Shown: positions 29,887 through 60,568, numbered from the stretch's first letter. The stretch is 64,000 bases of DNA from an uncultured Anaerolineales bacterium (GCA_964458115.1 CAYWIC010000001.1:11984-75983); one strand, 5' to 3'. The notes: generated by a model from the letters alone, not told the origin. Numbers and translations are program-made.

Positions 29887-30134
29887 AATTTCAAATACCC
29901 ATCCAACCATGGGAATTCAGTTACACGGCCCCGCCTGACCTAAATATTTACGTCGGTTTTATAGACTCCCACTTCTACCCCCGATACACTCACATAAGCA
30001 ATCAACCAACATTGGGCATGGATTATCTTTTGATTTAAGCACTTGAATAATCGTGTGCTCAAAATTTCATCGCCTAACAGTGTTCAATCTACGTGCATTT
30101 CATAGAAATGGCATCATCATACGGAGTCATCAGC

Positions 30135-32147: not shown

Positions 32148-33656
32148 TTATGCCGGCAGTTCAATTGTGAATCGAGTCCCCCTCCCTAACTCACTTTCAA
32201 CCCCAATCTTCCCCCCGTGCATTTCGACAATCGACTTGGCGATTGCCAATCCCAATCCGGTTTCGCCACCCTCGCCGTTGCGGGCGTCATCCACACGATA
32301 GAAGCGGTCGAATATGCGCGAGATGTCGGATGGATTGATTCCCGTTCCAGTATCTGCAACGGAAAATTTGACCGACGGCTGACCGCTGACTGCTGACTGC
32401 TGGCTGCTGACCGCAATCATCCCATCTTCAGGAGTATAGCGCAGAGCATTGCTGACCAGGTTGCCCAGCACTTGCATCATGCGGTCAGGGTCAGCGTTGA
32501 TGCGTGGCAGGCCTGCTTCGGTCTGGATGGAGAGTTCGATGCCTTTTTGGTCAGCGGCGTGTTGATAGGCCGCCTTCACTTGCTCTAGCAATCCAAGAGG
32601 GGCAATCGGGGCGCGGTTGAGAGAGAGTTCCCCAGCTTCAGCCAGCGAGAGTGTGCGCAGGTCTTCGACCAGACGTTGTAGTTGATGAACTTCTTTGTGC
32701 ATCGTTTCCAGCCGCTCGGGTGTAGGTTTTAGCACGCCATCTCGCATAGACTCGATATACCCGCCGATGACTGACAACGGAGTTCGTAAGTCATGTGCAA
32801 TATCGGCCGTCATCTGGCGGCGTTGTTCGCTGAGGTGGGCCAGATCGGCGCTCATCTGGTTGAAGTCGCTCGCCAATTGGCCGATCTCGTCTTTTGAGTG
32901 AACAGCCACCTGACGACCGAACTCCCCCGTAGCAGTGTGGCGAATTGCGGTGGTCAGTTCGCGCAAGGGACGGGTCAGTCCACGGGTGAGCACCAGGCTG
33001 ATCACCAGGGCGATGCCCATGGCTCCTAGAGTAGCGTAGATCAGCGACTGATTGGTGCGCTCCAAAAATAATTCTTCACGTTTTGCCAAAGGGGGAATAT
33101 CCCCTGTGGCAATGACTGTGCCCACGGCTTGACCGTCGATCTCAATGGCGGTGCCGCTCTCCCACTGGTCTTCAGACAGGAAATCTCCCATGCGGTACTC
33201 GCCAGCCGGGACGACCACTCGCCCGCGGATGTCGATAAGTGCAAAGGTAAGGGGTTGGTTGCCCACTGCATTGCCAAGATTATCTTGCGGTGGTGGCTGT
33301 TGAGCGGGTTGTTGTGGAGGAGGTTGTTGTTGGGCTGGCGCTTGCCCTGGTTGGCGCGGTTGCTGACCCTCAGGCGGATTCTGTAATACCCCAGCTGGTT
33401 GCTGTTGCGGAAGTTGTCCTGGAGGGTTACTCTGTTGATTCTGGCGGCGGAAGATCGATGCCGCAAACCCCTGCCACGAGCCGGTAGCCTGGTAATAAGT
33501 TGTCGCCCGGTCGATGAAGTTATTCTGGGCGTTGCTAAAGGCCAGCCTTTCGAAATCTCGTTGCGTGGTGAAGCGCGTGATCGCCGCGGCTAAAAGAGCC
33601 ACAGTAAGGCTGATGGCCAGAAATGCCAGGAGCAGTTTGGGAGCCAGTGAACGCAT
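32148..33656 (-). CDS. sensor histidine kinase (HAMP-HisKA-HATPase) with Pro/Gln-rich insert in the extracytoplasmic domain
   Basis: Two TM helices, a HAMP domain, H-box AHDLRTPL, and N/G boxes ([26 protein letters not shown]). The sensor loop holds about 70 aa of P/Q-rich sequence. Confidence 0.9.
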
Positions 33657-33707: not shown

Positions 33708-34403
33708 TCACTGTCCACTGTCCATTGTCTGAAAGCGATACCCAACCCCAAAGACGGTCTCGATGCGCTGCGGGTTGCTGGGGTCGGTCTCGATCTTCGT
33801 ACGCAGGTTACGGATGTGCACATCTATCGTGCGCTCGACGCCCTCGAAGGCTGTACCCTGCAAACTTTCCAGCAGATCCAGACGGGAGAAGACGCGTCCC
33901 GGGGCAGTCATCAGCACTACTAACAGATCGAACTCCGAGGGGGTCAGATCGACGTATTGATCCCCCACCTTTACGGTGTGCTCGTCCTGGTTGAGGGTGA
34001 TCCCGCCTCCGCGCAGAATATTGGCCGGCGGCGCGGCCTGGCTGGTACGCCTCAGCACCGCCCGGATGCGGGCGACGATTTCCTTCATGCCAAAGGGCTT
34101 GGTGACGTAGTCGTCGGCGCCTAACTCCAGGCCCAGCACCTTGTCCGTCTCTTCTAATTTGGCAGTCAGCATGATGATGGGCGTATCGCTCTCTTTGCGG
34201 TAGTGGCGCATAAAATCATAGCCGCCCATCTCGGGCATCATGATATCGAGGATGATCAAGTCGGGTTTTTCGTGGCGCGCCACAAAGAGAGCTTCTCGGC
34301 CGTTCTCGGCAGTGACTACCTGGAAGCCCTCTTCGGTGAGATATTCTCTCAGCAGCGTACGCACATTGGCTTTGTCGTCTACGACGAGGATTGTTTTGGT
34401 CAT
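33708..34403 (-). CDS. OmpR/PhoB-family response regulator
   Basis: Receiver domain (ILVVDD, DLIILDIMMP, LTAK) and a winged-helix output (LTPSEFDLL..., RTIDVHIRNLRTKIE, VFGVGYRF). The start is placed at the ATG at 34403. Confidence 0.9.
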   Translation of the reverse strand: MTKTILVVDDKANVRTLLREYLTEEGFQVVTAENGREALFVARHEKPDLIILDIMMPEMGGYDFMRHYRKESDTPIIMLTAKLEETDKVLGLELGADDYVTKPFGMKEIVARIRAVLRRTSQAAPPANILRGGGITLNQDEHTVKVGDQYVDLTPSEFDLLVVLMTAPGRVFSRLDLLESLQGTAFEGVERTIDVHIRNLRTKIETDPSNPQRIETVFGVGYRFQTMDSGQ

Positions 34404-34480
34404 ACTGTTATTGTACCTAAAAACTCCCGAAGACCCTAAAGGTCTCAAAGTAGTTCAATGGGATTTCCCGTGAGAGGCCT

Positions 34481-36021: not shown

Positions 36022-36087
36022 GACTGCCTCCTTTGGAGTACTCTCCATTTACTCGTTTGAAAAACATGAATCTTGTAAAGTGGTCTT

Positions 36088-36135
36088 AGGATAGCACAGA
36101 GATGTTCAGAAGTTGTTTAGATTGTGTTTAGCACC
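36088..36135 (-). promoter_or_regulatory. regulon promoter (a): extended -10 plus three phased 11-bp direct repeats
   Basis: On the forward strand, AGGATA at 36088-36093 corresponds to TATCCT on the coding strand, followed by GCA (TGC). After 9 bp come TGTTCAG (36103), TGTTTAG (36114) and TGTTTAG (36125). Confidence 0.6.
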
Positions 36136-38577: not shown

Positions 38578-40110
38578 CTAAGGTCTGTTCTCAGGAATGC
38601 AAACAAGCTGTGATTGCCTGATTTGACAAGAGCCGCTAACTTCCTTGTTGGGGTGTTGGATGGTACAAGCCGCGCCGACGACCAAGCTTTTGCAGGCATC
38701 TAACGCCCTTTGGTGTTGTTCGTTGTTCCTTTGAGTGCCTTCTGCTTCCGGGGGCTCAGCTATGAGCGTTTCCCCAGGTTCAAGGGTCAGGTTAGCCAAT
38801 CCTGGGTAATCGGCAGCGAATTTTGTCATGCGAAAGACATTATCGCCAAAATCATAGCTCCAGACGATTTCGCCCTCTTGCGTGACCTCGAAGAAATAGC
38901 CATTGGTGCCGCTGCAGATAAGCGTATTGCCATTGGGCAAACGCTGCGCCCCGGAGATGTGGTCGGCGAAGAAGTCGGTGGGGTTATCGGCCGCGTACGT
39001 CCAGGTGGGAGCCTCGGGACCAAATGCTGCACCAGGTGTCAGGTTATAGCTGCCATCATCGTTTAAGGGCGGAATGATTTCATCTATGGTGGAGTAGGCA
39101 CGGGCAGCCTTGTGCCCGTTGTTGAACACTAAGATATTGCCTCCACCAGGATAATCGGTGGGAATCCATTGAGTGTCATGCTGAACATAAAGCTGTCGAT
39201 CATCTGCGGTTCCAGAGTCATAGGCCTCAGGGTTGCCCCAACGATAGAGTAGGTCACCCGCGGGTCCGGCCGCTTCTTCGGTGGTTGTGTCGTGATCGAT
39301 AATCCAAATCTCGCTAAACCCATGCACGCTGAGCATAATCTGGTCCAGTTCAGGGTTGTAGTCGATGGCATTGGTGTGGTTCCAGTCCGCGCTGGGTTCG
39401 CGAGCGATGTGATTTAGATTGATCAACTCAGGATGCTCGGATACTGTGCCGTAGTTCTCTTTGGTGGCATCGTAATCCTGAATGAGATGATCCCAGACAT
39501 GCCACTCCCAGACGATTTGATCGGTGCTGGGATCCACCTCGATGATGTGATCTGGCCAGAGTTCGCCGTCCTTCAGCAAGCTAGGATCGCGCCCGGCGGC
39601 GATGGCTTCGGCGCGTGTCTTATACTCCCAGGCGATCATCAGGATGTTACCGTTGGGAAGTTGCTCGATATCGTGATGCAGTTGCACCTGGTTGTTGGCA
39701 TATCTGAATTCCCAGACGATAGTATTGTCGGGGGCGATCTCTTGCACCACTCCGCCAGATCCACCGGCATCGAATACGCCTGTTTTTTCCGTGCCGGGTT
39801 GCAGTAGGTTGCCGTTCTCCAACAGATAGACCGAATTACCAGGGGTGTAGTCGCTCTCCCAGGTGTAGAAGGCCACGCCCTCGGCGTTCATCAGGTGCGT
39901 TTCAGTGGAACGGATCGGGGAGAAAAAATATAGCCCTTCGGATGCGATCTGTTCTTCTGGGGATGGCACATTGTTTTTAACAGAATCATCTGTTACCGAA
40001 TCTTCGCTCGTAGCCTCAGCGATTGTTTGATCAGTGAAGCCTGCGAGGAGTGAACAGGCCAGAGTAGTGATGAGGGTAATCGTGATCAGGAGAATTTTTT
40101 TGCTGTGCAT
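38578..40110 (-). CDS. arylsulfotransferase (ASST)-like beta-propeller lipoprotein with C-terminal 4-Cys module
   Basis: Lipobox LITTLAC, then LENGNLL, HHDIEQLPNGNIL, WHVWDHL, DWNHTNAIDYN and SEIWIIDH motifs. The C-terminus is QRALDACKSLVVGAACTIQHPNKEVSGSCQIRQSQLVCIPENRP. Confidence 0.6.
   Translation of the reverse strand: MHSKKILLITITLITTLACSLLAGFTDQTIAEATSEDSVTDDSVKNNVPSPEEQIASEGLYFFSPIRSTETHLMNAEGVAFYTWESDYTPGNSVYLLENGNLLQPGTEKTGVFDAGGSGGVVQEIAPDNTIVWEFRYANNQVQLHHDIEQLPNGNILMIAWEYKTRAEAIAAGRDPSLLKDGELWPDHIIEVDPSTDQIVWEWHVWDHLIQDYDATKENYGTVSEHPELINLNHIAREPSADWNHTNAIDYNPELDQIMLSVHGFSEIWIIDHDTTTEEAAGPAGDLLYRWGNPEAYDSGTADDRQLYVQHDTQWIPTDYPGGGNILVFNNGHKAARAYSTIDEIIPPLNDDGSYNLTPGAAFGPEAPTWTYAADNPTDFFADHISGAQRLPNGNTLICSGTNGYFFEVTQEGEIVWSYDFGDNVFRMTKFAADYPGLANLTLEPGETLIAEPPEAEGTQRNNEQHQRALDACKSLVVGAACTIQHPNKEVSGSCQIRQSQLVCIPENRP
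38581..38712 (-). other. 4-Cys module, copy in ASST-like protein 1
   Basis: QRALDAC-x7-AC-x11-C-x8-CIPEN. Confidence 0.6.
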
Positions 40111-40166: not shown

Positions 40167-41495
40167 TTAGTCCGATGGAGCGTCATCTAGCGGGGTGCCG
40201 TCGAAACCGGGGTAGTCAGGGTAGTAGCGCTCGACGCGGAATACAGCGTTCCGATCGGGATCGGGCTCTTGGACCTGGTATTCCCAAACCTTTTCGCATG
40301 ATGGGGTCACCTCGAAGAGGTAGGAGTTCCCCCCATGGCAAGTCAGTGTGTTGCCATTGGGAAGTCGTTGAGCTCCCGAGATGGATTTTGCGTAGAAGTC
40401 GGTGGGGGGCTCTGCTGTGTAAATCCAAACTGGGTCGCTGGGACTGTATGCGGAGCCCGCATCAAGGGGATAACTGCCATCGGAGTTCACCGGCGATATG
40501 ATCTCGACGATCGAAGAGTATCTCCCTTCGGGGCGTCTCATGCCGTTGTTGAAGACCAGGATATTCCCCTCACCTGGCAGCCCAGCGCCGATCCACTCGG
40601 CATCGTGTTGGTGAAAGAGCTGCTGATCGGCGGCAGTCCCTGCATCGTATGTTTGGGGGTTGCCCCAGCGATAGAGCAGGTCACCGCCCATCCCGCTATT
40701 GCCACCTGTGTGACCAGCCGCTTCAGCAGTTGTTGTGCTGTGGTCGATGATCCAAACTTCGCTGAAGCTGTGGACACTCAGCAAAATCTGATCCAGTTCG
40801 GCGTTGTAATCAACGGCGTTGGAGTGGAACCAATCGGCGGCATTGAACCCGACATAGTTCAGGTCAATCAGCTCGGGGTGGTTGGCAACGACGCCGAAGT
40901 TATCTTTGGTGGTATCATAATCCTGAACGAGATGATCCCAGGCATACCATTCCCAGACAATATCGCCCGATTTGGGCCCGGTGGGTTGCACCTCGATGAT
41001 ACTGCCTGGCCACAACTCGCCATCGTTCAAAAGCGATGGATCGCGACCTGCGGCGAGGGCCTCAGCCTCAGTCTTGTACTGCCAGGCGATCATCAGCACG
41101 TTGCCGTTGGGCAGCATCTCGACGTCATGGTGCTGCAAGTGTGTGTTGCTGGAGTACTCGTACTCCCAAGTGACATTTCCATCCCAGTCGATCAACTGGA
41201 CGATGCCGCCAGCACCGTCCGCTCTGAAGATGCGGTTACGCGCACCGCCAGTGTAAAGTAGTTGGCCGTTTTCCAAGAAGTAAACTACATTGCCAGGTTT
41301 GTAGTTGGTTTCCCAGGAGTGGACTATGTTGCCTTCAGTGTCCACCAGGTTGACTGTCGTTGTGTGGAGTAATACGAACAGGTTGTAGCCTTCCGTGCCA
41401 GGTTCTTCCTGACCAGCGAAAGCGCTCATAAATGTCAAGGCTAAAACCAACCCCGTGATGAAAATGATGGGGATGATGCGGATGATTTCCTTCAT
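40167..41495 (-). CDS. arylsulfotransferase (ASST)-like beta-propeller protein, paralog without 4-Cys module
   Basis: The same motif set: LENGQLL, HHDVEMLPNGNVL, WYAWDHL, DWFHSNAVDYN and SEVWIIDH. The ATG at 41495 (MKEIIRIIPIIF signal) follows GGAG. Confidence 0.6.
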   Translation of the reverse strand: MKEIIRIIPIIFITGLVLALTFMSAFAGQEEPGTEGYNLFVLLHTTTVNLVDTEGNIVHSWETNYKPGNVVYFLENGQLLYTGGARNRIFRADGAGGIVQLIDWDGNVTWEYEYSSNTHLQHHDVEMLPNGNVLMIAWQYKTEAEALAAGRDPSLLNDGELWPGSIIEVQPTGPKSGDIVWEWYAWDHLVQDYDTTKDNFGVVANHPELIDLNYVGFNAADWFHSNAVDYNAELDQILLSVHSFSEVWIIDHSTTTAEAAGHTGGNSGMGGDLLYRWGNPQTYDAGTAADQQLFHQHDAEWIGAGLPGEGNILVFNNGMRRPEGRYSSIVEIISPVNSDGSYPLDAGSAYSPSDPVWIYTAEPPTDFYAKSISGAQRLPNGNTLTCHGGNSYLFEVTPSCEKVWEYQVQEPDPDRNAVFRVERYYPDYPGFDGTPLDDAPSD

Positions 41496-41506
41496 GCTGA
41501 TCTCCA

Positions 41507-41565
41507 TTCTTCCCTCACCCCCAACCCCTCTCGCTCAGCGAGAGGGGTTGGGGGTGAGGGAAGAA
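41507..41565. repeat. 59-bp near-perfect palindrome filling the intercistronic gap
   Basis: TTCTTCCCTCACCCCCAACCCCTCTCGCT-C-AGCGAGAGGGGTTGGGGGTGAGGGAAGAA, located between the stop at 41568 and the downstream start. Confidence 0.8.
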
Positions 41566-41567
41566 AT

Positions 41568-43166
41568 CTATGGTTGCCCTCCTGAGCCCGTCGAAGGGCC
41601 ACCCTCTGGAGGCGGTCCACCACCGCCAGGGCCACCTTCGGGCACACAAGCTAGCGTACTTTGGATATTTGTACAGCTACCGTCTAGGGTTCCTCGTGGA
41701 GTATTGATGGTACAGGCTGCCCCTTCACTCGAGGCTGAACAAGCATCGATGGCTTCCTGGGGGGGTGATCCCTGATCGCCCGGGCCTTGTCCCAAACCAG
41801 TTGAAGGGAGTTGGCCAGCTTGCTGCTGAGATTGACTTGCAAACTCAGAACCAGTTCCAATGTTTGGGTCCGTTTCGCCGCCGGTGAGAACTTCTCCGGT
41901 GGTGCCGCCGGTTACGCAGCGGGCATAGTTGTAGATGCGTACGGCGTCACCTTGCGGGCCATGGCCTGTTGGATAAACAGAAGGATCACCACTTTTTTGC
42001 TCAGCCCGTTGAGCCCCAGCGCCATGGACATCCATCCAGGTGCCGTTCATATAGCCCATCGAGCGACCGAAGTTGATGTATACACCCGAACGACTAAAGC
42101 CATCAGCATTGGTGTGTGTGGTGCTGCTCCAATAGGCTGGATAATCTGATTGACCAGCTTCGTTCGTGATCAGAGTGACATTGAAGATAGGATCGATGGC
42201 TGCTGAGTTGGTTGTGTCTGGTGAGCGAGAGTAATCGATGATGCTGTGCAACTCTTTGGCATTGGGGAGACGCCAATCGCTAATTCCACCATAATCCAGG
42301 CTGGAGCAGTAATTCAAAGCACCTTCCCAGTCCAGTGAATTACCGCTATCGGATTGCATCCAGGTCAGGCCGGTTGCATTGTCGGTTACCATGCCGTTGC
42401 CCTCATCGACGAATTCGTTGACTCCGTAGCTGGTGTTGTCGCGTACGTAGATTACGAAGAAAGTTTTGGCAGAGCGGCCATGCAGCGCTTCAGTCCCGTA
42501 GCCCTTGATGCGTCCATCGGCAAAGTTGACACCAAACATGGTTTCATGGCCGTTCATGGTGGTGCTGACATATCTGGTGCTGGTAGCCCACTGAGAGTCG
42601 ATGATACGATCACCGCTGGATGTGTCTCCATACTTGAAGACGAAGTAATCGGTATCGATGAAAGGAATTCCTGTGCAGGTTCCTTCTTCGACACACCGGC
42701 TGACGTCGGTGCCGCTGAAATCGATCAATGAATAAAGCTCTTTGATGGTAGGTAAGCGCCAATCGTTGTACCCACCCAAAGTCAGACTGGAAGCACCCGC
42801 AACCGCTTGGTTGTAGGTCATCTTCTCGCCAGGATCCTGCTGCCATATCAAACCTGTCACCAGGTCGGTCACTGTGCCGTCACCATTATCCTGGTAGCTT
42901 GCCTGGGTGCCGACGACCTGACCATCCTGTCCGTAGAAGGATTTGCCTTCTTCGGGGCAGGGGATGCTGGTTGAATCGCTATAGCAGTATTCCTGTCCAG
43001 TATCAACGATGGCATAACTATAGACAGATGCGTTGGCAGTGTCTTGCTCTGCAGTTGGGGCAAGTGAGTCAGCGCTAACTGAAGTCAGAGGGTAGACTGC
43101 TCCGCTGGCTGATAATATGAAAGCGATTGCGATTGCAATCATTAGGGTTTTTCTTTTCTTGTTCAT
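41568..43166 (-). CDS. secreted protein with two DUF1566 (Lcl C-terminal-like) domains and C-terminal 4-Cys module
   Basis: A signal peptide, then WRLPTIKELYSLID and WRLPNAKELHSIID motifs. The C-terminus is PPQEAIDACSASSEGAACTINTPRGTLDGSCTNIQSTLACVPEG plus a Gly/Pro tail. Confidence 0.65.
   Translation of the reverse strand: MNKKRKTLMIAIAIAFILSASGAVYPLTSVSADSLAPTAEQDTANASVYSYAIVDTGQEYCYSDSTSIPCPEEGKSFYGQDGQVVGTQASYQDNGDGTVTDLVTGLIWQQDPGEKMTYNQAVAGASSLTLGGYNDWRLPTIKELYSLIDFSGTDVSRCVEEGTCTGIPFIDTDYFVFKYGDTSSGDRIIDSQWATSTRYVSTTMNGHETMFGVNFADGRIKGYGTEALHGRSAKTFFVIYVRDNTSYGVNEFVDEGNGMVTDNATGLTWMQSDSGNSLDWEGALNYCSSLDYGGISDWRLPNAKELHSIIDYSRSPDTTNSAAIDPIFNVTLITNEAGQSDYPAYWSSTTHTNADGFSRSGVYINFGRSMGYMNGTWMDVHGAGAQRAEQKSGDPSVYPTGHGPQGDAVRIYNYARCVTGGTTGEVLTGGETDPNIGTGSEFASQSQQQAGQLPSTGLGQGPGDQGSPPQEAIDACSASSEGAACTINTPRGTLDGSCTNIQSTLACVPEGGPGGGGPPPEGGPSTGSGGQP
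41634..41765 (-). other. 4-Cys module, copy in DUF1566 protein
   Basis: PPQEAIDAC-x8-C-x12-C-x8-CVPEG. Confidence 0.6.
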
Positions 43167-43202: not shown

Positions 43203-43240
43203 ATATTAGCAAACGCATGTTCAGAAGTTGTTTAGAAGTT
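43203..43240 (-). promoter_or_regulatory. regulon promoter (b)
   Basis: The coding strand reads ACTTCTAAACA ACTTCTGAACA, then 9 bp containing TGC, then TAATAT. On the forward strand the repeats are at 43218 and 43229 and the hexamer at 43203-43208. Confidence 0.6.
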
Positions 43241-47583: not shown

Positions 47584-49605
47584 TTACCTGAAGAGAAAAT
47601 CCGAATTGGGGATCTCCGGCATGGAAATTGGTTGTGAGTACAGGTACGCACCATCAGGATACAACATATCACCAAGCATCTCTTCTCGGAAAGCCATCAA
47701 CTGGGCTTCTTGCTCCCTGGTCAACGATGAGCCGACCTGGGCAAAGTTTTCAGCGAAATTGTAGATGATTGCGCCATCCAACTCGCCGTATTCTTCCATC
47801 CAGGCCAAGACAGCATCCATATCAGCGGATTCACCAGCCATGAACTTGCGCAGGTCGACGGCGACCAGTTGGCGTGTATCTACGATCTCCAGCAGGTAGG
47901 GTCGTTGGATGTCTACTAGGCCAGTTAAGAGCTGCGCCTGGTCTGGGGTTAGGGTATTCAACATGGCTTCCCCCATATCTCCTGTCAGGTTGGATGAGAT
48001 GGTGTAATCGGGGTTGCCCATGGCGGGAGCATCTTTGAGATAGAACGAACCAAAGTAGGTCCCTTGGCGTTCGGGGCAGAAGTACACATCTGCTTCGACC
48101 GAGCCGAGATACCAACTGAACATGTCACCGGCATAAGTCATCACAGCGACTTTGACATCCCGGTCCAGGCCGCGTATATCGGAAGGCTCCTCAACATCTG
48201 GCCAATCGAGCATCCCTACGCCAACCAGTGCCTCCAGATAGTTTTGCTGAGATTCATCCAAAGCGCTAAGCATGCCGCCCATCACCTGCGCCCTCTCGAA
48301 GCTGATCTCGCCATCCAGCCGATAGAGATCAGCTGAGTAATCCTTGACAGCTTCTTCGTCCAAGCGTGACGTTCCGGCCGGGAGATCACCATCCAGCAAG
48401 CGGCGGAAAGCGTCCATCAGGACAAAACGCATTTCAGCGTACTCATCAATGGAGTCAACTTGACCCTCGGCCAGAGTCACCAGCTCGGAGCGCTGCTCAG
48501 GGGTCAGCACATTGAGCATGTTGAAGGCGGCTTGGGTCAGGAAATCAGTGTTATGCCCCATCTCGGTGGGGTCGTTATCACGCAGGTACTGAAAACCCCA
48601 GAAATCAGCCACCTTGCCAGGAGGGAAGAAGGAATCAGCACCCAGGTCGCCGGTCAGAAAAGCCAGGGCGTCGAAGGAAATTGTCATCTCCTGTGCATGG
48701 TCTGAGATAGCCTGTTCAATATTGTATGCAGCTCCATTCTCAGCGGGCGGTCTTCCATCGCTTGGATCACGCTCGCTGGGATGTTGTGCGTCAAGAGGGC
48801 CATCAGATTGGTTTTCGGGCGGACCCTCGAACGGATCTCGTTGGGGTGAGCAGGCCAGCTGATCCTGAACAACTTCACAGACCCCTGTTTCAGGACCATT
48901 GTTGGATGTAAATTCACAGGCATCTTGTTCAATCCCTCCACTGCAGGCAGCGATGGCCTCCTGTGGGGGTGTTCCTCCAAGGGCAGCAAGTTGCCCTGGA
49001 TTAGTTTGATCATTATTGTCGCCGGGCTGCTGGAGGTCAGATGATCCACCTGTTTGGTTTTCGGGCGGACTGTCAGACGGATCGCGTTGGGGTGAGCAAG
49101 CTAGTTGTTCTTGTACCACTTCACAGACGCCTGTTTCAGTACCCTGGTTGAATGAAAATTCACAGGCATCTTGCTCAACTCCTCCATTACAGGCAGCGAT
49201 GGCTTCCTGTGGGGGTGTTCCTCCAGGAGCAGGGGGCTGTTGGCCGTTACCTGTATCCCCGCTTTCCCTTGGCGGAGGTTGCTGGCCGCTGCCAAGGTCC
49301 CGGTTTTGCGGGGGTTGTTGCCCATTCTGCGTCCCTTCATCTTCTCTGGGAGGGGGCGGCTGATTATTGTCAGAACCCTCTCTTGGCGGGGGTGGAGGCT
49401 GGCTGTTGTCTGAACCTTCTCTTAGTGGAGGTGGGGGAGCGTTATTCTGGCTGTCACTTGGAGGAGGTGATTCCTGCCCGAGTTCATCTTCGACTAATTG
49501 AATTACTGGAGCCTCATCGAGTTGATCCGCGGCAACGATGCCTGGTGTACAGACAAGTGCCAGCAAGGTTACGAGCAGAATATTGTAAATGGGTTTGGTG
49601 TTCAT
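47584..49605 (-). CDS. secreted protein: Pro-rich repeats, two tandem 4-Cys modules, ~400-aa unassigned C-terminal domain
   Basis: A signal peptide, then QPPPPPREGSDN repeats. The sequence TPPQEAIAAC..C..C..ACSPQRDP appears twice with an ~82-aa period. The C-terminal domain has no motif I recognise. Confidence 0.6.
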   Translation of the reverse strand: MNTKPIYNILLVTLLALVCTPGIVAADQLDEAPVIQLVEDELGQESPPPSDSQNNAPPPPLREGSDNSQPPPPPREGSDNNQPPPPREDEGTQNGQQPPQNRDLGSGQQPPPRESGDTGNGQQPPAPGGTPPQEAIAACNGGVEQDACEFSFNQGTETGVCEVVQEQLACSPQRDPSDSPPENQTGGSSDLQQPGDNNDQTNPGQLAALGGTPPQEAIAACSGGIEQDACEFTSNNGPETGVCEVVQDQLACSPQRDPFEGPPENQSDGPLDAQHPSERDPSDGRPPAENGAAYNIEQAISDHAQEMTISFDALAFLTGDLGADSFFPPGKVADFWGFQYLRDNDPTEMGHNTDFLTQAAFNMLNVLTPEQRSELVTLAEGQVDSIDEYAEMRFVLMDAFRRLLDGDLPAGTSRLDEEAVKDYSADLYRLDGEISFERAQVMGGMLSALDESQQNYLEALVGVGMLDWPDVEEPSDIRGLDRDVKVAVMTYAGDMFSWYLGSVEADVYFCPERQGTYFGSFYLKDAPAMGNPDYTISSNLTGDMGEAMLNTLTPDQAQLLTGLVDIQRPYLLEIVDTRQLVAVDLRKFMAGESADMDAVLAWMEEYGELDGAIIYNFAENFAQVGSSLTREQEAQLMAFREEMLGDMLYPDGAYLYSQPISMPEIPNSDFLFR
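48841..48969 (-). other. 4-Cys module, second copy in the 673-aa secreted protein
   Basis: PPQEAIAACSGGIEQDACEFTSNNGPETGVCEVVQDQLACSPQ. Confidence 0.6.
49087..49215 (-). other. 4-Cys module, first copy in the 673-aa secreted protein
   Basis: PPQEAIAACNGGVEQDACEFSFNQGTETGVCEVVQEQLACSPQ. Confidence 0.6.
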
Positions 49606-49798: not shown

Positions 49799-51058
49799 AT
49801 GCGACGGGACAAATTCAAGGGCAAACAAATACAGCGCATTGCTGCCTGGATGTGGATTGGCTACCTGCTGGCAATGACTTTGGTGGATTCAACCATCTAT
49901 AGAGATTTCTTGAATTCGCCATTGGCGCTTTATGCCTGGACGAATGGCTTGGCAGCGCTGTGCTTTCTTGGTTTAGCATATTGGGGTTGGGCACAAAAAC
50001 GGTTGGAGGATGCTTACTTCCCATTGCTGATCCTGCTGATCTCGGTGACTCCGATATTGCTGCACCACCTCCTCTTGCCGCAGTTGCCGCCGGGTCCGTT
50101 GTCCAACGCCGAGGGGATGATCATGCGGCAGTTGCCCGTTCACTTCATTGGTCTCATTCTGGTTGCCTGGCAATACTCTTGGGGGCCAATCATTTTCTAT
50201 AGTATTGGGACGGCAGCCTTCGAATTGCTGATCATCATGCTGTTCAAACGGGTCAATCCCGGTACTTTCACTATTATCGTTTTAATCACCGTCATTCGTA
50301 CGATTAGTTTCCTGGTGATTGGCATCTTCATTCATCGTCTGATGTCTCGACTGCGAGCCCAGCAAGATTCCCTCCGACAGGCAAACCTGCAGCTCAAGCA
50401 CTATGCCAGCACACTCGAGAACCTGACCATCAGCCGGGAGCGTAACCGCATGGCTCGCGAGCTGCATGACACCTTAGCCCATACCCTGAGCGGTTTGTCA
50501 GTACAGTTAGAGACTGTCAAGGCCTACTGGGAAGTGGAACCAAATACCGCTCAAAACCTACTCGATCAATCTTTAGCGGCCACCCGCTCCGGTTTGGATG
50601 AAACCCGCCGGGCACTGAAAGCCCTGAGAGCCACTCCGTTAGATGATTTGGGCTTAGGTATGGCAATCCGCAATTTGGCAGAAACCGCCGTGAACAGAAG
50701 CACCTTAAAACTGAGTCTGATGCTCCCGGAACAAATCCCAACCCTGTCTCCAGATATCGAACAGTGCATCTATCGTGTTGCCCAAGAGGCGATTGAAAAT
50801 GTGACCCAGCACGCCAATGCCCGAAACCTGGCCCTCCGACTGACGTTTGATGAGGACACTGGTATTCTCAAAGTTCAGGATGACGGCCTGGGGTTTGATG
50901 TGCGGCAGAGAGAAAAGACAGGCCATTTTGGTTTATCTGGGATGCGCGAACGCGCCCATCTGGCAGGTGGCAAATTGACCATCGACAGCCAACCTGAGAA
51001 AGGGACCATCGTCAAGCTAATTCTAAAAGGAATTATCGATGAGAGTGATCATCTGTGA
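49799..51058 (+). CDS. membrane sensor histidine kinase, HisKA_3 (NarX/LiaS-like) type
   Basis: Multi-TM N-terminal half, H-box RERNRMARELHDTLAHTL, and a HATPase domain (DDGLGFD, GHFGLSGMRERA). Confidence 0.85.
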   Translation: MRRDKFKGKQIQRIAAWMWIGYLLAMTLVDSTIYRDFLNSPLALYAWTNGLAALCFLGLAYWGWAQKRLEDAYFPLLILLISVTPILLHHLLLPQLPPGPLSNAEGMIMRQLPVHFIGLILVAWQYSWGPIIFYSIGTAAFELLIIMLFKRVNPGTFTIIVLITVIRTISFLVIGIFIHRLMSRLRAQQDSLRQANLQLKHYASTLENLTISRERNRMARELHDTLAHTLSGLSVQLETVKAYWEVEPNTAQNLLDQSLAATRSGLDETRRALKALRATPLDDLGLGMAIRNLAETAVNRSTLKLSLMLPEQIPTLSPDIEQCIYRVAQEAIENVTQHANARNLALRLTFDEDTGILKVQDDGLGFDVRQREKTGHFGLSGMRERAHLAGGKLTIDSQPEKGTIVKLILKGIIDESDHL

Positions 51059-51671
51059 CGATCAGGCTATTATCCGTGATGGCCTGGAAATGCTCTTGAA
51101 ATTAGAGAAGGATATCGAGGTAGTCGGGCTCGCTCAAGACGGAGCCGAAGCCGTGGAGTTAGCAGAGCGAGAATCCCCGGACCTGGTGTTGATGGATTTG
51201 AAAATGCCAGGGATGAATGGCGTAGAAGCCACCCGGCGCATTCGAACCCATCATCCCGAGATCAAAGTACTGGTGCTAACCACCTACGATGATGACGAGT
51301 GGGTTTTCGATGCCATCCGGGCTGGGGCATCAGGATACCTGCTTAAGGATACCCCCCGTGAAGCTGTCGTTGATGCTATCCGAGGAACCGTAGAAGGGAA
51401 GTCATTCGTAGATCCAGCTGTCACGGGCAAACTACTAAACCAATTGGCCAGCAAGCAGGAGCAACCCACATCGTTGATCATTGATAAACTGACTGGACGA
51501 GAAGCAGATGTGTTGTGCCTTATCGCTCGTGGCCTGAGCAACACTGAAATCGCTGAAGAACTCCACCTTTCCGAGGGGACAGTGCGCAATCATGTCAGCG
51601 CAATTTTTTCGAAATTGGATGTCTCAGATCGCACCCAGGCCGCGATTATGGCGATTCAGCATGGGTTGTAA
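51039..51671 (+). CDS. NarL/LuxR-family response regulator
   Basis: Receiver domain (VIICDD, DLVLMDLKMPGMNG) and a LuxR HTH (LTGREADVLCLIARGLSNTEIAEELHLSEGTVRNH). The start overlaps the kinase stop by 20 nt. Confidence 0.9.
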   Translation: MRVIICDDQAIIRDGLEMLLKLEKDIEVVGLAQDGAEAVELAERESPDLVLMDLKMPGMNGVEATRRIRTHHPEIKVLVLTTYDDDEWVFDAIRAGASGYLLKDTPREAVVDAIRGTVEGKSFVDPAVTGKLLNQLASKQEQPTSLIIDKLTGREADVLCLIARGLSNTEIAEELHLSEGTVRNHVSAIFSKLDVSDRTQAAIMAIQHGL

Positions 51672-54490: not shown

Positions 54491-55222
54491 TCAGCGCAAA
54501 TTAAAGCGCCATTTCAAGTAATTGCGCTTAGCAACTTGTTCTTGCAACAAGCCCCATAGATCACGGAAGGCTTTGATAATCACCCGGATATCTGCTCCTG
54601 TAGCCTCACCACCGACGCGCGGACGATGTGTTACCGGTACTTCCTCGATTCTACATCCCAGTCGCCGGGCGCTGGAGAGAAATTCCGTATCGATTAGCGC
54701 ACCATCCGAAGTGATATTCACACATTTGAGTACGTCACGCCGAAATAGCTTGAACCCGCAATCGATATCCCGGCACAAATAGCCAAAAAGAATGCGAATG
54801 AGAGTATTCCAGCCAAAAGCGTTGAATTTACGTAGGAAAGGGTCGCGCCGGGGCGCACGGTAGCCACAAACGATATCAGCGTTTGCAGCTTCCTGGTGTT
54901 CAAGTAGGCGTGTGATTTCCTCAAAATGGAATTGGTTGTCGGCGGGGAAGAAAGCAATCAGGTCTTTTCGAGCGGCAGCAAACCCCGCTTTGAGCGCCCC
55001 CCCATAACCACGGTTAGGGTAGTGCTCTACCAGGCGGAATTCAGGGATATAAGCGGCCAGTTCACGCCCAATCTCGCCTGTGTGGTCGCGGCTGCCGTCG
55101 TTGACCAGGATGATCTCATGATCGAGGCCAAGGTTTTGTGCCACACCGGCTACTTCGGCGACTGTTGTGCGTACATTGGCTTCTTCGTTATATGCGGGTA
55201 AGACGATGGATAAACTTTTCAT
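54491..55222 (-). CDS. GT2 polyprenyl-phosphate glycosyltransferase (ArnC/GtrB/DPM1-like)
   Basis: LSIVLPAYNEEANV start, DGSRD motif, and an ED-containing acceptor loop. Confidence 0.85.
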   Translation of the reverse strand: MKSLSIVLPAYNEEANVRTTVAEVAGVAQNLGLDHEIILVNDGSRDHTGEIGRELAAYIPEFRLVEHYPNRGYGGALKAGFAAARKDLIAFFPADNQFHFEEITRLLEHQEAANADIVCGYRAPRRDPFLRKFNAFGWNTLIRILFGYLCRDIDCGFKLFRRDVLKCVNITSDGALIDTEFLSSARRLGCRIEEVPVTHRPRVGGEATGADIRVIIKAFRDLWGLLQEQVAKRNYLKWRFNLR

Positions 55223-55263: not shown

Positions 55264-55653
55264 CTACCGAAAAACTACCATTTTGTTCAAGATAAAATTC
55301 CAGCCAAAGGCGGCGCCGGTTGCCAGTACAAGGGAGATGACTTCACTAAGATTAAACGTCTCTAGACCGAGATACATGACACCGGCATTGATTCCCAGGG
55401 CGGCGATGTGGGTCAACGTGAACAAGAAAGCCGCCTTCCAGGTTGGGACACGGTATGCCGTATCCTTGCTCTTGAACGTCCAGTTGCGGTTCCAATAAAA
55501 ACTGTTGGTCATGCCAACAGCGTAGGCAATCCCTTTGGCCAGTACGGGCAGGGGCTCCAGCCACAGCCAGCGAGTTAGTACATAGTAGGTCGCTGCGTCG
55601 ATGAGGGTGTTGGATACGCCCACAGCCGCATATTTGATGACCTGTGAAATCAT
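55264..55653 (-). CDS. GtrA-family membrane protein
   Basis: MISQVIKYAAVGVSNTLIDAATYYVL start, four TM helices, and FGWNFILNKMVVF at the end. An alternative upstream start is at 55716. Confidence 0.7.
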   Translation of the reverse strand: MISQVIKYAAVGVSNTLIDAATYYVLTRWLWLEPLPVLAKGIAYAVGMTNSFYWNRNWTFKSKDTAYRVPTWKAAFLFTLTHIAALGINAGVMYLGLETFNLSEVISLVLATGAAFGWNFILNKMVVFR

Positions 55654-55699
55654 CTTCAAACCTTGAAAGTTTTCAAAACCTTCAAGGTTTCTCTTTGCG

Positions 55700-58072
55700 T
55701 TAGCTTCCGCAGTCATAGAGCACCTCTTCGGTTTGCCCGCCGGGGCTACCTGGGCCGCCTTGAATTTGGGGCATCGTAATCACGCCCGGCACATCGACCA
55801 CGCTACAGCTATTTCTCATCCATTGGGCGATCTCCTGCTTTTGCTGTGGGATGCCGAGGATGTAGCGCAGATCGCCGTTATCAATCATCTCAATCAACTC
55901 TCCCAGACTGATCACATCATCTCTGCCGCCGAAGCCGCCAAAGGTCAGCACTGCCCGATCCGATTCCAAGAGGTAGGGCGCCGCACCGCGGGCGTTGAGC
56001 GTAGCTAGTAGATAATCGTCAGGATCGGTGTTGGCCAGTGTGTAAACCAGGATGGCTTGCCCATTTGCGCTCAACGTAGTCACATCTGGGGTCATGAAGG
56101 TTGAGCGGGTGCGGTCGGATGCTGAAATGCCTGCGGTGGGGAGCCCCACGTTGGGATTGGGATTCAGCGTGGTCAAAGCAGACCAGGTGAGCGGGGCAAC
56201 CAGCATAGCGATTAGCACCAAGGAGAATCCGATTTTGTGGGCCGGGATCAGTTTACTCAATGCGAGGATGCCGATTCCAGCCAGCCAGATTAAGATGGAT
56301 ATCGCCGTAACCCAGCCTGCGTACTCCGGATAGTTTTGAATGATGTAGATCTCGAAGATGATCGTCAGCCCGGTAATGAAGGCCGTGACCAGCCAACCGA
56401 GGGTGGGGTTCTGTTTCCAGTGTTTGGCGACGCTCCAGAGGCTGATCCCAACTAAGGCCGCTAGTGGGGGTCCAATCATAATCAGGTAGTAGCGATGGAA
56501 CAGGCCGGTAGTGAAACTGAAATAAGCCATGGAGGGCAGCAGCCAGCCAGCCCAGAGCAGCAGGCTGTTGTGCTTACCATTCAGCGGCCATGACCAGCCT
56601 GTGGCGACCAACGCAACGGGCAGTCCCAACAATACCAGTGGCAGCAACCAGCTGGCCTCAGTGACCAGGGGCTCTTCGAACAGGCGCAGCACACCCGCTG
56701 TTCCAGTCTCTCCGCCGTTCATGTTACCCCGTCCTGAGCCTGTCGAAGGGCCACGTCCACCAACCTGCCCGCCGTCGATACCTTGGCCGCCAGGAGGGCC
56801 ATCGGGGAATTGTCCGTCAGGACCGTCTGGGAATTGACCAGGAACGTTGGCGGTTGATGACGTCGGTGGCGGCTGGCGCCCTTCCGGTACACAAACCAGG
56901 TCTCCACTCTGATTGTCATAACAAGTGCCATCGATGGTGTTGCCATTTCGTAAATTGACCGTGCAGTCTTCGCCAGTTCTCAAATCAGTACAGGCCTCCA
57001 GAGCTTCGGGTGGTGGTTGGCGATTAATTCCTTGGGGCTGATTCCCATCGAGAACGGAATTCTGCCCAGGAGGGCCCAACCCACCCTGAGGTCGCGTCGT
57101 TTTTCCATCTGGAGGGCTATCGCTAAATTGTGGGGCCTGGCCTGAATTTATGGAGGAGCCATCGGCTCCAACCCGGAGGCCTTGCCCTGAGTTTATCGAA
57201 GGGCCATCGGCGCCGCCTGGGCCACCAAGGCTCATATTTAAACGCTTCAGCCCGTTATGGCCGACGATTAACTCCATAACGGTGTTGTCTTCGCTGCTGC
57301 CAATATAGGGGCGCTCGTCCACAGGGGTCAAGTCTACTACCACCACCCAGGCCAAGGAGACAACCAACAGAACAATTGTCGCCACCCCAAGCTGGAGGAT
57401 GCGTTTCCACCAGGCATTGCGAGCGCCCAATAAATAGACGGCATAGAATGCGGGCAAAACCATATAGGCTTGCAGCATCTTGATATTGAAGCCCAGCCCA
57501 ACCAGTACCGCACCTAGCAACAGATGCCGGGTTTTCCCTGACTCAGCAGCCTTGAGAAACGCCCAGGCTGCCAGCAACGACACGAAAACCAGTAGGCCGT
57601 CGATGGTGTTGTTGCGCTCAGTGGCGATGGTCACGGGGACTAGTGCTAACACCAGAGCAGAAATCAACCCAGCCCAGATACCGAAATATTTGCGAACTAA
57701 ATGGTAGAGCACCGGGATGGAGAGCGTTCCGGCCAAGGCCTGTGGCAGCGCCAGAGCGAAGCCATTGATACCCAGGAAATAGGCCGAAACCGCTTGCACC
57801 CAGAATCCCAAGGGGGGTTTGTCGACGGTTACGGAGCCGCCCGGCTCGAAGGAGGCGTAGAAGAAATTGTGCCAGGAAGTCAGCATCGATTTGACCGTGG
57901 CAGCATAGTACGTGTTGCCGATAGTGTAAGTTCCCAATTGGTAAAAGCGCAAAAAGGCACCCAGTGCAACGATCGCCAACAGCCCAATACCGCCGATGAT
58001 CTTTTGGCGGCTGAGGTTTAGTGTCCGCGTCTGGGATGTGTTTGTTGGTAGGGTTTGCGTTTCTGTGGTCAT
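55700..58072 (-). CDS. GT-C fold glycosyltransferase (family 39, ArnT/PMT-like) with 4-Cys module inserted in its Gly-rich extracytoplasmic loop
   Basis: N-terminal PMT_2-like TM bundle (DKPPLGFW, ERNNTIDGL), then YIGSSEDNTVMELIVGHNGLKRL, an insert of about 190 aa of G/P/Q-rich sequence holding the module, then more TM helices. The ATG at 58072 follows GAGGA. Confidence 0.8.
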   Translation of the reverse strand: MTTETQTLPTNTSQTRTLNLSRQKIIGGIGLLAIVALGAFLRFYQLGTYTIGNTYYAATVKSMLTSWHNFFYASFEPGGSVTVDKPPLGFWVQAVSAYFLGINGFALALPQALAGTLSIPVLYHLVRKYFGIWAGLISALVLALVPVTIATERNNTIDGLLVFVSLLAAWAFLKAAESGKTRHLLLGAVLVGLGFNIKMLQAYMVLPAFYAVYLLGARNAWWKRILQLGVATIVLLVVSLAWVVVVDLTPVDERPYIGSSEDNTVMELIVGHNGLKRLNMSLGGPGGADGPSINSGQGLRVGADGSSINSGQAPQFSDSPPDGKTTRPQGGLGPPGQNSVLDGNQPQGINRQPPPEALEACTDLRTGEDCTVNLRNGNTIDGTCYDNQSGDLVCVPEGRQPPPTSSTANVPGQFPDGPDGQFPDGPPGGQGIDGGQVGGRGPSTGSGRGNMNGGETGTAGVLRLFEEPLVTEASWLLPLVLLGLPVALVATGWSWPLNGKHNSLLLWAGWLLPSMAYFSFTTGLFHRYYLIMIGPPLAALVGISLWSVAKHWKQNPTLGWLVTAFITGLTIIFEIYIIQNYPEYAGWVTAISILIWLAGIGILALSKLIPAHKIGFSLVLIAMLVAPLTWSALTTLNPNPNVGLPTAGISASDRTRSTFMTPDVTTLSANGQAILVYTLANTDPDDYLLATLNARGAAPYLLESDRAVLTFGGFGGRDDVISLGELIEMIDNGDLRYILGIPQQKQEIAQWMRNSCSVVDVPGVITMPQIQGGPGSPGGQTEEVLYDCGS
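56879..57016 (-). other. 4-Cys module, copy inside the GT-C enzyme
   Basis: PPPEALEACTDLRTGEDCTVNLRNGNTIDGTCYDNQSGDLVCVPEG. Confidence 0.6.
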
Positions 58073-58214
58073 GACTTTGTCCTCGAGTATTTTCATCGCG
58101 AGAAGCCTGCAGTAGGCGTGGCGACGAAGAGATCTGCTACTAATAGTGGGAGACTGCTTCGCCAAGCTGAACTTTGCTCAGCCGCTCGCAGTGACATTAT
58201 TCTTGAGTGTCCAA

Positions 58215-58252
58215 AGCTTAGCAAAGAGATGTTCAGAAGTTGTTTAGAAGTG
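58215..58252 (-). promoter_or_regulatory. regulon promoter (d)
   Basis: The coding strand reads ACTTCTAAACA ACTTCTGAACA, then 9 bp containing TGC, then TAAGCT. On the forward strand the repeats are at 58230 and 58241 and the hexamer at 58215-58220. Confidence 0.6.
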
Positions 58253-60478: not shown

Positions 60479-60528
60479 TGTGCACACTCCTTTGGGGATT
60501 AAAACGACAGAAAGGATATACTGGACCA

Positions 60529-60568
60529 TTTATGTCCAATATTATATGCGTTTTTATGTTTATGTCCA
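60529..60568 (-). promoter_or_regulatory. two TGGACATAAA direct repeats bracketing a TATAAT box
   Basis: Forward-strand TTTATGTCCA at 60529-60538 and 60559-60568. ATTATA (TATAAT on the coding strand) lies at 60541-60546. Confidence 0.35.

Follow-up and report, generated by a model that had tools for sequence, protein, structure and literature searches.

We analyzed a 64,000-nucleotide stretch of DNA from an uncultured Anaerolineales bacterium (GCA_964458115.1, CAYWIC010000001.1:11984-75983), here called the window, in which four extracytoplasmic proteins share a small module with four cysteines. The module occurs as five segments of ~44 residues, all encoded on the minus strand (Table 1): one each in an Lcl_C protein, an ASST-like protein, and a GT-C glycosyltransferase, and two in a secreted protein of 673 amino acids. 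The host proteins have signal-peptide-like or lipoprotein-like N-termini. A preliminary description made from the sequence alone had placed the five segments in linker-flanked, extracytoplasmic positions; they translate exactly as it wrote them, and those positions were borne out. A plus-strand reading of the segments is ruled out, the frames being full of stops.

Table 1. Genes, module copies, and other features of the 64-kb window (ORF, open reading frame; positions counted from the first nucleotide of the window)
Feature	Position	Strand	Remarks
Host 1, secreted Lcl_C (DUF1566) protein, 532 aa	41568..43166	-	Signal-peptide-like N-terminus; module C-terminal
Host 2, ASST-like β-propeller protein (Arylsulfotrans), 510 aa	38578..40110	-	Module forms the last 44 residues
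Host 3, GT-C glycosyltransferase (PMT_2 + YkcB_C), 821 aa as ORF called	55700..58165	-	Module at residues 384-429
Host 4, secreted 673-aa protein	47584..49605	-	Pro-rich repeat region, two modules, 398-aa C-terminal domain
C-terminal domain of Host 4, 398 aa	47584-48780	-	Predicted all-helical
Module copy 1	41634..41765	-	PPQEAIDAC...LACVPEG; C-terminal part of Lcl_C protein
Module copy 2	38581..38712	-	QRALDAC...LVCIPENRP; extreme C-terminus of ASST-like protein
Module copy 3	56879..57016	-	PPPEALEAC...LVCVPEG; inside long Pro/Gly/Gln-rich GT-C loop
Module copy 4	49087..49215	-	First of two copies in the 673-aa protein
Module copy 5	48841..48969	-	Second copy in the 673-aa protein; apparent internal duplicate of copy 4
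Shared 23-nt element ACTTCTAAACAACTTCTGAACAT	43217..43239	-	Upstream of Lcl_C gene
Identical copy of ACTTCTAAACAACTTCTGAACAT	58229..58251	-	Upstream of GT-C gene
ACTTCTAAACAACTTCTGAACAT with 3 mismatches	36102..36124	-	Upstream of unit for 485-aa Ig-like protein, response regulator, histidine kinase
OmpR-family response regulator	33708..34448	-	
HAMP/HisKA histidine kinase	32148..33656	-	
GtrA_DPMS_TM gene	55264..55716	-	Downstream of GT-C
GT2 gene	54491..55222	-	Downstream of GT-C
ASST paralog (ASST-446)	40167..41507		Without module (HMM scan, Pfam)
Inverted repeat	41512-41560		Between Lcl_C stop and ASST-446 start
485-aa secreted protein	34591-36048	-	Heads the response regulator/histidine kinase unit
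649-aa protein	30093-32042	+	Adjoins the two-component genes
HisKA_3 kinase / LuxR-type regulator pair	49799..51671		Divergent from the 673-aa gene
700-aa signal-peptide protein	58427-60529	-	Directly upstream of GT-C

A hidden Markov model (HMM) built from the five copies gave exactly five matches in the six-frame translation of the 64 kb, with domain E values of 1e-23 to 8e-23; the best non-module match in the window reached E 0.09. Models built with one host left out still recovered the omitted protein (Lcl_C, E 6e-18; ASST, 3e-12; GT-C, 3e-8; 673-aa, 6e-12), whereas the best noise stood at E ≥ 0.06. Because each host is found again well above noise, the similarity is not compositional. The cysteine pattern had been said to align without gaps, and this holds for the spacing of eight residues between the first two cysteines (C1 and C2) in all five copies but not for the GT-C copy as a whole, which has two one-residue insertions relative to the others. 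Pairwise identity is 32-50%, except for the pair in the 673-aa protein (84%). The two segments of that pair, copies 4 and 5, are identical at 110 of 129 nucleotides; since so few positions differ and 13 of the 19 differences fall at third codon positions, they indicate a recent internal duplication. Counted in codons, there are 11 synonymous and 7 nonsynonymous differences, and the third-position excess is consistent with purifying selection. Tandem Repeats Finder detected no tandem array in the gene; the duplication is visible by direct alignment.

The module is widespread. When 1.84 billion representative proteins were searched exhaustively with HMMER and the five-copy profile, 2,704 matched at E ≤ 1e-3, of which 586 reached E ≤ 1e-10 and 20 reached E ≤ 1e-30. 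The best 150 of the 2,704 are mostly proteins of 120-350 residues with a signal-like N-terminus and 2-8 tandem copies on re-scanning, and the search table for these 150 records up to 11 module stretches per protein. Word-indexed protein searches with module profiles returned only 1 and 14 matches, the index being too insensitive for a 44-residue domain; their source names read only "hypothetical" or "secreted protein." The family consensus is PPxEAhxAC-x8-C-x12/13-GxC-x8-11-LAC-x-P, in which C1 and C2 are always separated by 8 residues, C2 and C3 by 12-13, and C3 and C4 by 8-11. A signal-like h-region is present in 134 of the 153 members that start with Met. The 15 residues on each side of the module contain 18% Pro and 18% Gly across the family, in keeping with the Pro/Gly-rich linkers first described in the window.

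Covariation of the cysteines suggests how the module is held together. Across 352 aligned instances, C1 and C3 are invariant and C2 and C4 are each conserved in 93%. All four cysteines are present in 329 instances and only C1 and C3 in the other 23, in which V/A and L/A stand in place of C2 and C4; single losses number zero. Because C2 and C4 are lost only together, the pattern implies disulfide pairing of C1 with C3 and of C2 with C4. An exported context and an even number of cysteines covarying in pairs are, in general, the marks of a disulfide-stabilized extracytoplasmic domain, and the module shows both; the paired loss thus lends indirect support to disulfide stabilization as proposed from the window. 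The four cysteines were kept in every ortholog examined (3 GT-C, 9+5 Lcl_C, 1 673-aa-like, 1 ASST-like, and 18 YHYH proteins), as is expected of a domain and not of low-complexity drift. The other strongly conserved positions are structural residues (Pro1, Pro2, Ala5, Ala8, Gly15, Gly29, Leu38, and Pro42). The main conserved polar positions in the same alignment are E4 (71%) and D16 (47%), no aromatic or His position is conserved, and Ser or Thr is frequent beside C2 (position 19, 70%) and C3 (position 30, 62%). An AlphaFold2 model based on an 88-sequence alignment was confident (mean predicted local distance difference test score, pLDDT, 88), with a helix at residues 3-10 and strands at 17-22, 25-34, and 37-42. 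The fold is thus probably a disulfide-stapled α+β3 unit in which a short helix at the N-terminus packs against a sheet of three antiparallel strands.

These data bear on whether the five segments might resemble one another by chance, being short and embedded in low-complexity Pro/Gly/Cys-rich sequence. The leave-one-out E values, the 2,704 homologs, the four cysteine columns with their paired loss, the confident model, conservation among orthologs, and a duplicated pair that differs mainly at third codon positions make such an origin next to inconceivable.

We then asked whether the family has a name, using Pfam-A (2025 copy), NCBIfam 20, and the PDB. In the host proteins, no model from Pfam-A or NCBIfam covered the module. 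The isolated window modules had no match in Pfam-A or NCBIfam even at E ≤ 10, ten multi-copy homologs gave nothing significant over the module in either collection, and 88 diverse instances had no significant Pfam-A match covering the 44-residue segment. Profile searches of PDB sequences reached at best E 0.6, to an aldo-keto reductase fragment, and Foldseek searches with the module model returned 0 matches at E ≤ 1e-3 in the PDB and 0 in BFVD. In the literature on DUF7406, YHYH, and cysteine-rich or Chloroflexi proteins, no description of the module was found. We therefore regard it as very likely that the family is real and absent from Pfam-A, NCBIfam, and the PDB, in agreement with the preliminary description, which had not recognized a named domain. 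DUF7406 (PF24155; uncharacterized, 52 positions, and so of similar length) is the only cataloged model touched by members more than once. One member (P0070) aligns with it over 21 residues around C2 (profile positions 13-33, E 1e-4), and 3 of the 88 instances match weakly (E 1e-3 to 1; best 1.3e-3). Membership is rejected, as the best whole-protein score is 22.6 bits against a gathering threshold of 28.4, and 85 of the 88 instances and all five window copies go unmatched; at most, DUF7406 may be a distant sister family.

Several familiar types of small domain were also discarded. A Cys4 zinc ribbon or knuckle is ruled out by the lack of CxxC pairs and by the 23 of 352 instances that keep only C1 and C3. 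A C-terminal sorting signal (LPXTG, PEP-CTERM, MYXO-CTERM, or the C-terminal domain of the type IX secretion system) is ruled out because the module may be N-terminal, internal, C-terminal, or standalone; no transmembrane segment was found after the module in the window hosts or the orthologs examined. The nearest structural neighbor is the antifungal protein NFAP2 (PDB 8rp9), which resembles the module in size (~45-50 residues) and in combining a single helix with a small, disulfide-held antiparallel sheet. It heads the Foldseek matches in the PDB (template modeling score 0.61), at an E value of 0.36, which is not significant, and 15% identity. This resemblance, single weak Pfam matches to Defensin_like and SLR1-BP (E 0.03-0.08), and the cationic linkers of many standalone members could be taken to mean that the proteins are secreted defensin-like antimicrobial peptides, of which the fused copies would be relics. 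A CSαβ defensin is ruled out, however, because the helix holds one cysteine (C1) and the CxxxC...CxC hallmark is missing. The window copies are acidic, and enzyme fusion, insertion in a GT-C loop, and two-component neighborhoods are unlike toxin/immunity loci. In addition, a DNA-pattern scan of 2.9 million viral contigs gave zero matches, and a plasmid tblastn search with one standalone member (P0058) gave none, leaving a defensin-like origin barely credible.

Having characterized the module itself, we examined the proteins that carry it. The GT-C host, identified as such in the preliminary description, has the features of a PMT_2/YkcB-type enzyme (PMT_2, E 2.3e-33; YkcB_C, E 1.8e-15; a DKPPLGFW motif; and ~12 hydrophobic segments). 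Its module-bearing loop spans residues ~280-503 and is followed by six hydrophobic segments, counted by inspection where an automatic hydropathy scan listed five, and then by the C-terminal domain. The YkcB_C side of GT-C enzymes is extracytoplasmic. Given the six segments between loop and YkcB_C, the loop probably lies on the same, extracytoplasmic side.

Presence of the module in this enzyme is optional. We retrieved an unbiased set of 80 metagenomic GT-C orthologs by their N-terminal 250 residues only, of which 65 could be evaluated; the module is present in 23 and missing from 42. In all 65, the loop between S-E-D-N-T-V-M-E-L...GHNGL and ETG-x-AG...RLF is a long low-complexity Pro/Gly/Gln stretch, with a median length of 164 residues with the module and 124 without. 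As the loop remains low-complexity while lengthening from 124 to 164 residues, the module is an insertion into a disordered loop, and because only 23 of 65 orthologs carry it, GT-C function is independent of it.

The 673-aa host behaves similarly. Among the 120 closest homologs of its C-terminal domain, 81 carry the module (75 one copy, 6 two) and 39 have none; a 94%-identical homolog (P0167) has one copy only. The protein has no Pfam domain above threshold, its LTXXQ (PF07813) score being 16.4 bits (E 0.015; cutoff 24.3 bits), although many homologs of 66-75% identity carry a precomputed PF07813 match and the JGI label "Spy/CpxP." The 398-aa C-terminal domain is all-helical by AlphaFold2 (pLDDT 83; predicted template modeling score 0.85) and contains several LTxxQ-type motifs; Foldseek found no significant fold match for this model in the PDB. 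Its family has 3,991 matches at E ≤ 1e-5, sometimes fused to PEBP, and the named ones among the matches listed are Chloroflexi/Chloroflexota metagenome-assembled genomes (MAGs). The closest relatives are Anaerolineales and Chloroflexota MAGs. The gene diverges from a pair encoding a HisKA_3 kinase and a LuxR-type regulator.

Dispensability of this kind could mean that the module is a passive structural bead. Compact, resistant to proteases, and locked by disulfides, such a spacer would stiffen or shield long disordered Pro/Gly-rich linkers and have no specific partner. The strongly conserved residues are mainly structural, with no conserved aromatic or His position, the module is always inside low-complexity linkers, and two-thirds of GT-C orthologs and one-third of the 673-aa homologs do without it. 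Hundreds of representative clusters, however, contain standalone proteins made only of 1-11 modules, which is hard to explain for a spacer, and the recurrent two-component and YHYH neighborhood described below points to a function of the module's own. We consider the bead unlikely.

To survey the distribution of the module, we scanned one genome per species with the degenerate DNA pattern PP[PQ]EAhxAC-x8-C. At least 118 loci were found, and 113 of the matches listed hold a true module. These come from Myxococcota/"delta" (27), Betaproteobacteria (22), Chloroflexota (19), Gammaproteobacteria (15), Alphaproteobacteria (11), the candidate phyla radiation (CPR; 6), and unclassified Pseudomonadota (5), with single loci in Acidobacteriota, Bacteroidota, Campylobacterota, Bdellovibrio, Melainabacteria, Desulfovibrio, Thermodesulfobacteriota, and a Streptomyces MAG. 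Culturable carriers include Roseateles, Sphingomonas aquatica, Pseudoalteromonas denitrificans, Sagittula, Microbulbifer variabilis, and Allochromatium. About half of the matches listed encode standalone small proteins and the rest fusions. Lcl_C fusions from Anaerolineales carry the module at the C-terminus, and those from Chromatiales and Rhodospirillales carry it at the N-terminus. Fusions to YHYH (PF14240) occur at 18 or more loci, from Saccharibacteria to Burkholderiales, with the module mostly C-terminal and N-terminal in two. CotH, PEBP, PG_binding_1, and Peptidase_S8 are further partners, so that the carrier families tabulated, as the preliminary description had advised, are Lcl_C, YHYH, CotH, PEBP, PG_binding_1, S8, GT-C, and ASST, besides standalone proteins. 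That description had also tied the module specifically to the GT-C and its co-regulated neighbors, a special link that is not supported: the module is present in at least 2,704 representative proteins, the genome loci listed span many phyla, and its most frequent settings are small secreted proteins of tandem modules and fusions to unrelated families.

One Anaerolineales locus (L020:2900-6505, plus strand) encodes a single 1,202-aa protein with a module, two Lcl_C stretches, an ASST propeller, and a GPS-motif match. This protein is a Rosetta-stone fusion, joining in one chain what are separate Lcl_C and ASST partners in the window operon. The Lcl C-terminal domain binds sulfated glycosaminoglycans (PMC11162425), which together with the fusion hints at a pathway with a sulfated substrate.

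The genes of the window hosts are linked by a short upstream element. In ACTTCTAAACAACTTCTGAACAT, the half-site ACTTCTnAAC occurs twice at a distance of 11 bp; a conserved TTGCTA and a CAAGAT block come next, and 0 matches to the element are expected by chance in the window. Three of the four hosts had been assigned to shared-promoter units, and these units do share the element. A half-site spacing of 11 bp is typical of OmpR/PhoB-type sites, and the tandem motif is also found upstream of GT-C orthologs at three other loci (L120, L121, and L157). Since the element also heads the unit encoding the OmpR-family regulator, autoregulation of that regulator is suggested. The regulator and its kinase (best NCBIfam model BaeS_SmeS, full-length, 273 bits; cutoff 500) are likely to control the units headed by the element. 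In the window, the GT-C cluster and the two-component genes lie 20 kb apart, yet they have this common upstream element.

Gene order in relatives points the same way. Related Anaerolineae loci place GT-C genes next to the regulator and kinase, Lcl_C, or 673-like genes (L124, L127, L140, L143, L152, L155, L159, and others), in orders that include GTC>GtrA>GT2>RR>HK, GTC>GtrA>LclC, GTC>LclC>RR, and HK<RR<GTC>673-like (RR, response regulator; HK, histidine kinase). Regulators directly following the GT-C cluster are 70-78% identical to that of the window. Genes scattered in the window thus stand contiguous in relatives, and GT-C, GtrA, GT2, the regulator, the kinase, Lcl_C, and the 673-like gene form one conserved gene set.

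Within this set, GT-C, GtrA_DPMS_TM, and GT2, whose order GTC>GtrA>GT2 is kept in relatives, together supply the usual parts of an extracytoplasmic glycosylation system; the operon has exactly the composition of known systems that combine a GT2, a GtrA-type flippase, and a GT-C (YkcB/YkcC-type, PMT/ArnT-like). Such three-component systems describe one host only, however, and a folded cysteine domain in the loop is an option taken by about one-third of these GT-Cs. The composition of the operon raises the possibility that the folded module is an acceptor, or recruits acceptors, for glycosylation by GT-C/GtrA/GT2. In eukaryotes, the GT-Cs DPY19, TMTC, and TMEM260 glycosylate small disulfide-rich or immunoglobulin (Ig)-like domains in a domain-specific manner. 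The window GT-C bears the module itself, is co-regulated with module-bearing secreted proteins, and has a weak TMEM260-like Pfam match (E 0.005, below cutoff), and the Ser/Thr residues beside C2 and C3 would offer sites. Against this, only three of the 113 module loci listed encode a relative of the window GT-C, no GT-C appears among the recurrent neighbors of module genes, two-thirds of GT-C orthologs lack the module, and Ser/Thr on β-strands are unremarkable. We rate a glycosylation tag as very improbable. The same observations, most GT-C orthologs lacking the module and a GT-C relative being present at only three loci, leave the GT-C-specific docking suggested in the preliminary description unsupported; its broader proposal of a docking or binding role is still a reasonable guess for a mobile accessory domain.

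Two-component genes recur beside the module well beyond the window. Among the matches listed, 20 of 53 standalone loci, all outside Chloroflexota, have an OmpR-type regulator or kinase within three genes, most of them arranged HK>RR>module on one strand. This order was found in Alpha-, Beta-, and Gammaproteobacteria, Myxococcota, Bdellovibrio, and Bacteroidota. Pseudoalteromonas denitrificans has an HK-RR-module-PEBP locus together with YHYH. Two-component genes make up ~1-2% of bacterial genes, and the frequency near standalone module genes looks like a strong enrichment when judged without a matched control. The neighboring kinases score 329-406 bits against BaeS_SmeS (cutoff 500) and the regulator 323 against BaeR (cutoff 380), all over the full length; as these scores fall below the NCBIfam equivalog cutoffs, we call the systems BaeSR-like and not BaeSR.

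Proximity to kinases could reflect physical contact, with module proteins acting as co-sensors or feedback regulators that touch the sensor domain of the adjacent BaeS-like kinase. CpxP and CpxA, or MgrB and PhoQ, are known pairs of this type; enzyme-borne modules would then report on secretion or oxidative folding. The recurrence of HK>RR>module across several phyla favors such a role, as does the 673-aa host, whose family JGI labels Spy/CpxP-like. The C1-C3/C2-C4 pairing, if correct, is non-consecutive and might make folding sensitive to the oxidative-folding machinery. There is also a positional likeness to CpxP, Spy, and ZraP of the LTXXQ family: standalone module genes hold the same type of genomic position beside BaeSR-like systems, and the family of the 673-aa host, labeled Spy/CpxP-like, has LTXXQ matches. 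LTXXQ proteins are all-helical and free of cysteine, however, whereas the module is predicted to be a disulfide-bonded α+β unit. Moreover, no kinase with a fused module was found, GT-C orthologs adjoining a two-component system mostly lack the module, and 33 of the 53 standalone loci listed have no two-component genes within three genes. One apparent kinase fusion (L010) was an ORF-calling artifact, the module gene lying just downstream. On balance, a kinase partner seems improbable.

Other genes also cluster with the module. Standalone module genes adjoin separate YHYH genes at five loci (L021, L025, L086, L087, and L116), and HupE_UreJ_2 permease-like genes and genes for secreted EF-hand proteins are found nearby; loci with neighbors of these types also include L017, L065, L004, L061, and L090. 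Clusters of YHYH, HupE_UreJ_2, and EF-hand genes occur in proteobacterial and myxobacterial loci, often beside a BaeSR-like pair, and may form a metal- or cation-related envelope island. The four cysteines, perhaps together with His-rich linkers, could accordingly bind Zn, Cu, or Ni in envelope metal homeostasis. BaeSR systems respond to metals in enterobacteria, several standalone members have His-rich linkers, and permease-like and EF-hand neighbors would suit the idea. For YHYH, Zn-dependent hydrolase activity directed at the envelope has been predicted (PMC7824862). The joint replacement of C2 and C4 by hydrophobic residues in 7% of instances, however, is the signature of a buried structural disulfide and not of a Cys4 site, the module has no conserved His, Asp, or Met, and the window copies lack His-rich linkers; a metal site is decidedly improbable.

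In the reading that we favor, the five segments are copies of one autonomous extracytoplasmic mini-domain of ~44 residues. The module behaves as a mobile accessory, borne on flexible Pro/Gly/Gln-rich linkers at the N-terminus, at the C-terminus, or in a disordered loop of unrelated secreted and membrane enzymes, and it also builds small secreted proteins of 1-11 tandem copies. In this genome, it decorates four members of one envelope gene set, comprising the GT-C/GtrA/GT2 system, the Lcl_C and ASST operon, and the LTXXQ-motif protein, with the set tied to the OmpR-family/BaeS-like two-component system through the shared upstream element and presumably regulated by it. The module has no signature of catalysis or of ligand binding. 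It is not catalytic, and its most likely role would be that of a tether or binding unit, which keeps the protein that carries it attached to a shared component of the envelope or to a partner protein. The data show a family that is real, widespread, modular, and optional, with a conserved cysteine pattern and a genomic context that recurs; the disulfide pairing, the side on which the GT-C loop lies, two-component regulation, and the role are inferred. We hold this reading as a whole, with the module tethering or binding within an envelope regulon under two-component control, at slightly less than even confidence; the binding or tethering function considered separately is a tentative suggestion. 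That the module recurs with BaeSR-like systems and with families acting on the envelope suggests a place for it in regulons for envelope maintenance or stress.

The closest functional parallels are the mobile modules by which secreted bacterial enzymes bind or anchor themselves: carbohydrate-binding modules (CBMs), LysM, PG_binding_1, and dockerins. Like these, the module is a small, autonomous, linker-borne domain that occurs at either terminus, in variable copy number, with unrelated catalytic domains, and that is gained and lost among orthologs. It differs in having no sequence or fold kinship to them and no conserved aromatic or polar binding surface, and it also forms standalone tandem arrays.

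Several points weigh against a binding module of an envelope regulon. Its lack of conserved surface residues fits an inert bead as well as a binder of variable specificity. GT-C loci, meant as a neutral control, are themselves linked to two-component systems with or without the module, and the association may reflect only membership in an envelope regulon. The best 150 of the 2,704 matches are biased toward multi-copy proteins, and the claim of novelty extends as far as the three catalogs searched.

A bolder version of this tethering hypothesis would give BaeSR-like envelope-stress circuits a periplasmic or extracytoplasmic part that has so far gone unrecognized, namely the module, conserved between Chloroflexota and the Proteobacteria, Myxococcota, and Bacteroidota. 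The standalone tandem proteins would then be kinase partners or effectors, and the output of the circuit (predicted hydrolases of the YHYH family, lectin-like Lcl_C proteins, Spy-like proteins, and a GT-C) would be anchored by the same module at a common envelope site. We offer this as an improbable extension. As the module occurs in culturable species, the hypothesis is directly testable.

However its function is resolved, the module is a compact domain present in thousands of protein clusters and at least eight phyla, with no Pfam-A, NCBIfam, or PDB entry, so that the annotation of most carriers reflects only the other domains present or reads "hypothetical." A definition of the family would help to annotate the envelope proteomes of poorly known groups such as Anaerolineae, CPR, and Myxococcota. 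It also links YHYH, DUF1566/Lcl_C, and Chloroflexota Spy-like proteins to BaeSR-like systems, providing a handle on the targets of such systems outside enterobacteria. Seen more soberly, it is one more uncharacterized domain among thousands, with a mechanism that is proposed only. It appears to be an uncataloged family of a familiar kind, the small disulfide-rich extracytoplasmic accessory module, whose tie to BaeSR-like systems is unproven.

Additional features of the window adjoin the genes discussed above. The Lcl_C and ASST operon contains an inverted repeat that is perfect over 21 nt, with 7 nt between its arms (CCCTCACCCCCAACCCCTCTC ... GAGAGGGGTTGGGGGTGAGGG). It is unique in the window and is not followed by a T-run, and it could be a hairpin for RNA processing or stability or an intra-operon attenuator. 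The 700-aa signal-peptide protein next to GT-C has no Pfam match, and its orthologs (69-85% identity) keep this position at two other loci (L120 and L122). The 485-aa secreted protein has an Ig domain of the N_BRCA1_IG type followed by two internally repeated cysteine-containing segments of ~130 residues without a Pfam match, the first reading …NGQCFDLNNGQ…YFCFQISN…GWIRVERFDQNGVTFDF… and the second …TGECFDVQNGQ…YYCYQFTP…GWLRPTHFDNNGLTFDY…. In the 649-aa protein, FG-GAP repeats are joined to a sortase domain at the C-terminus, an unusual sortase fusion.

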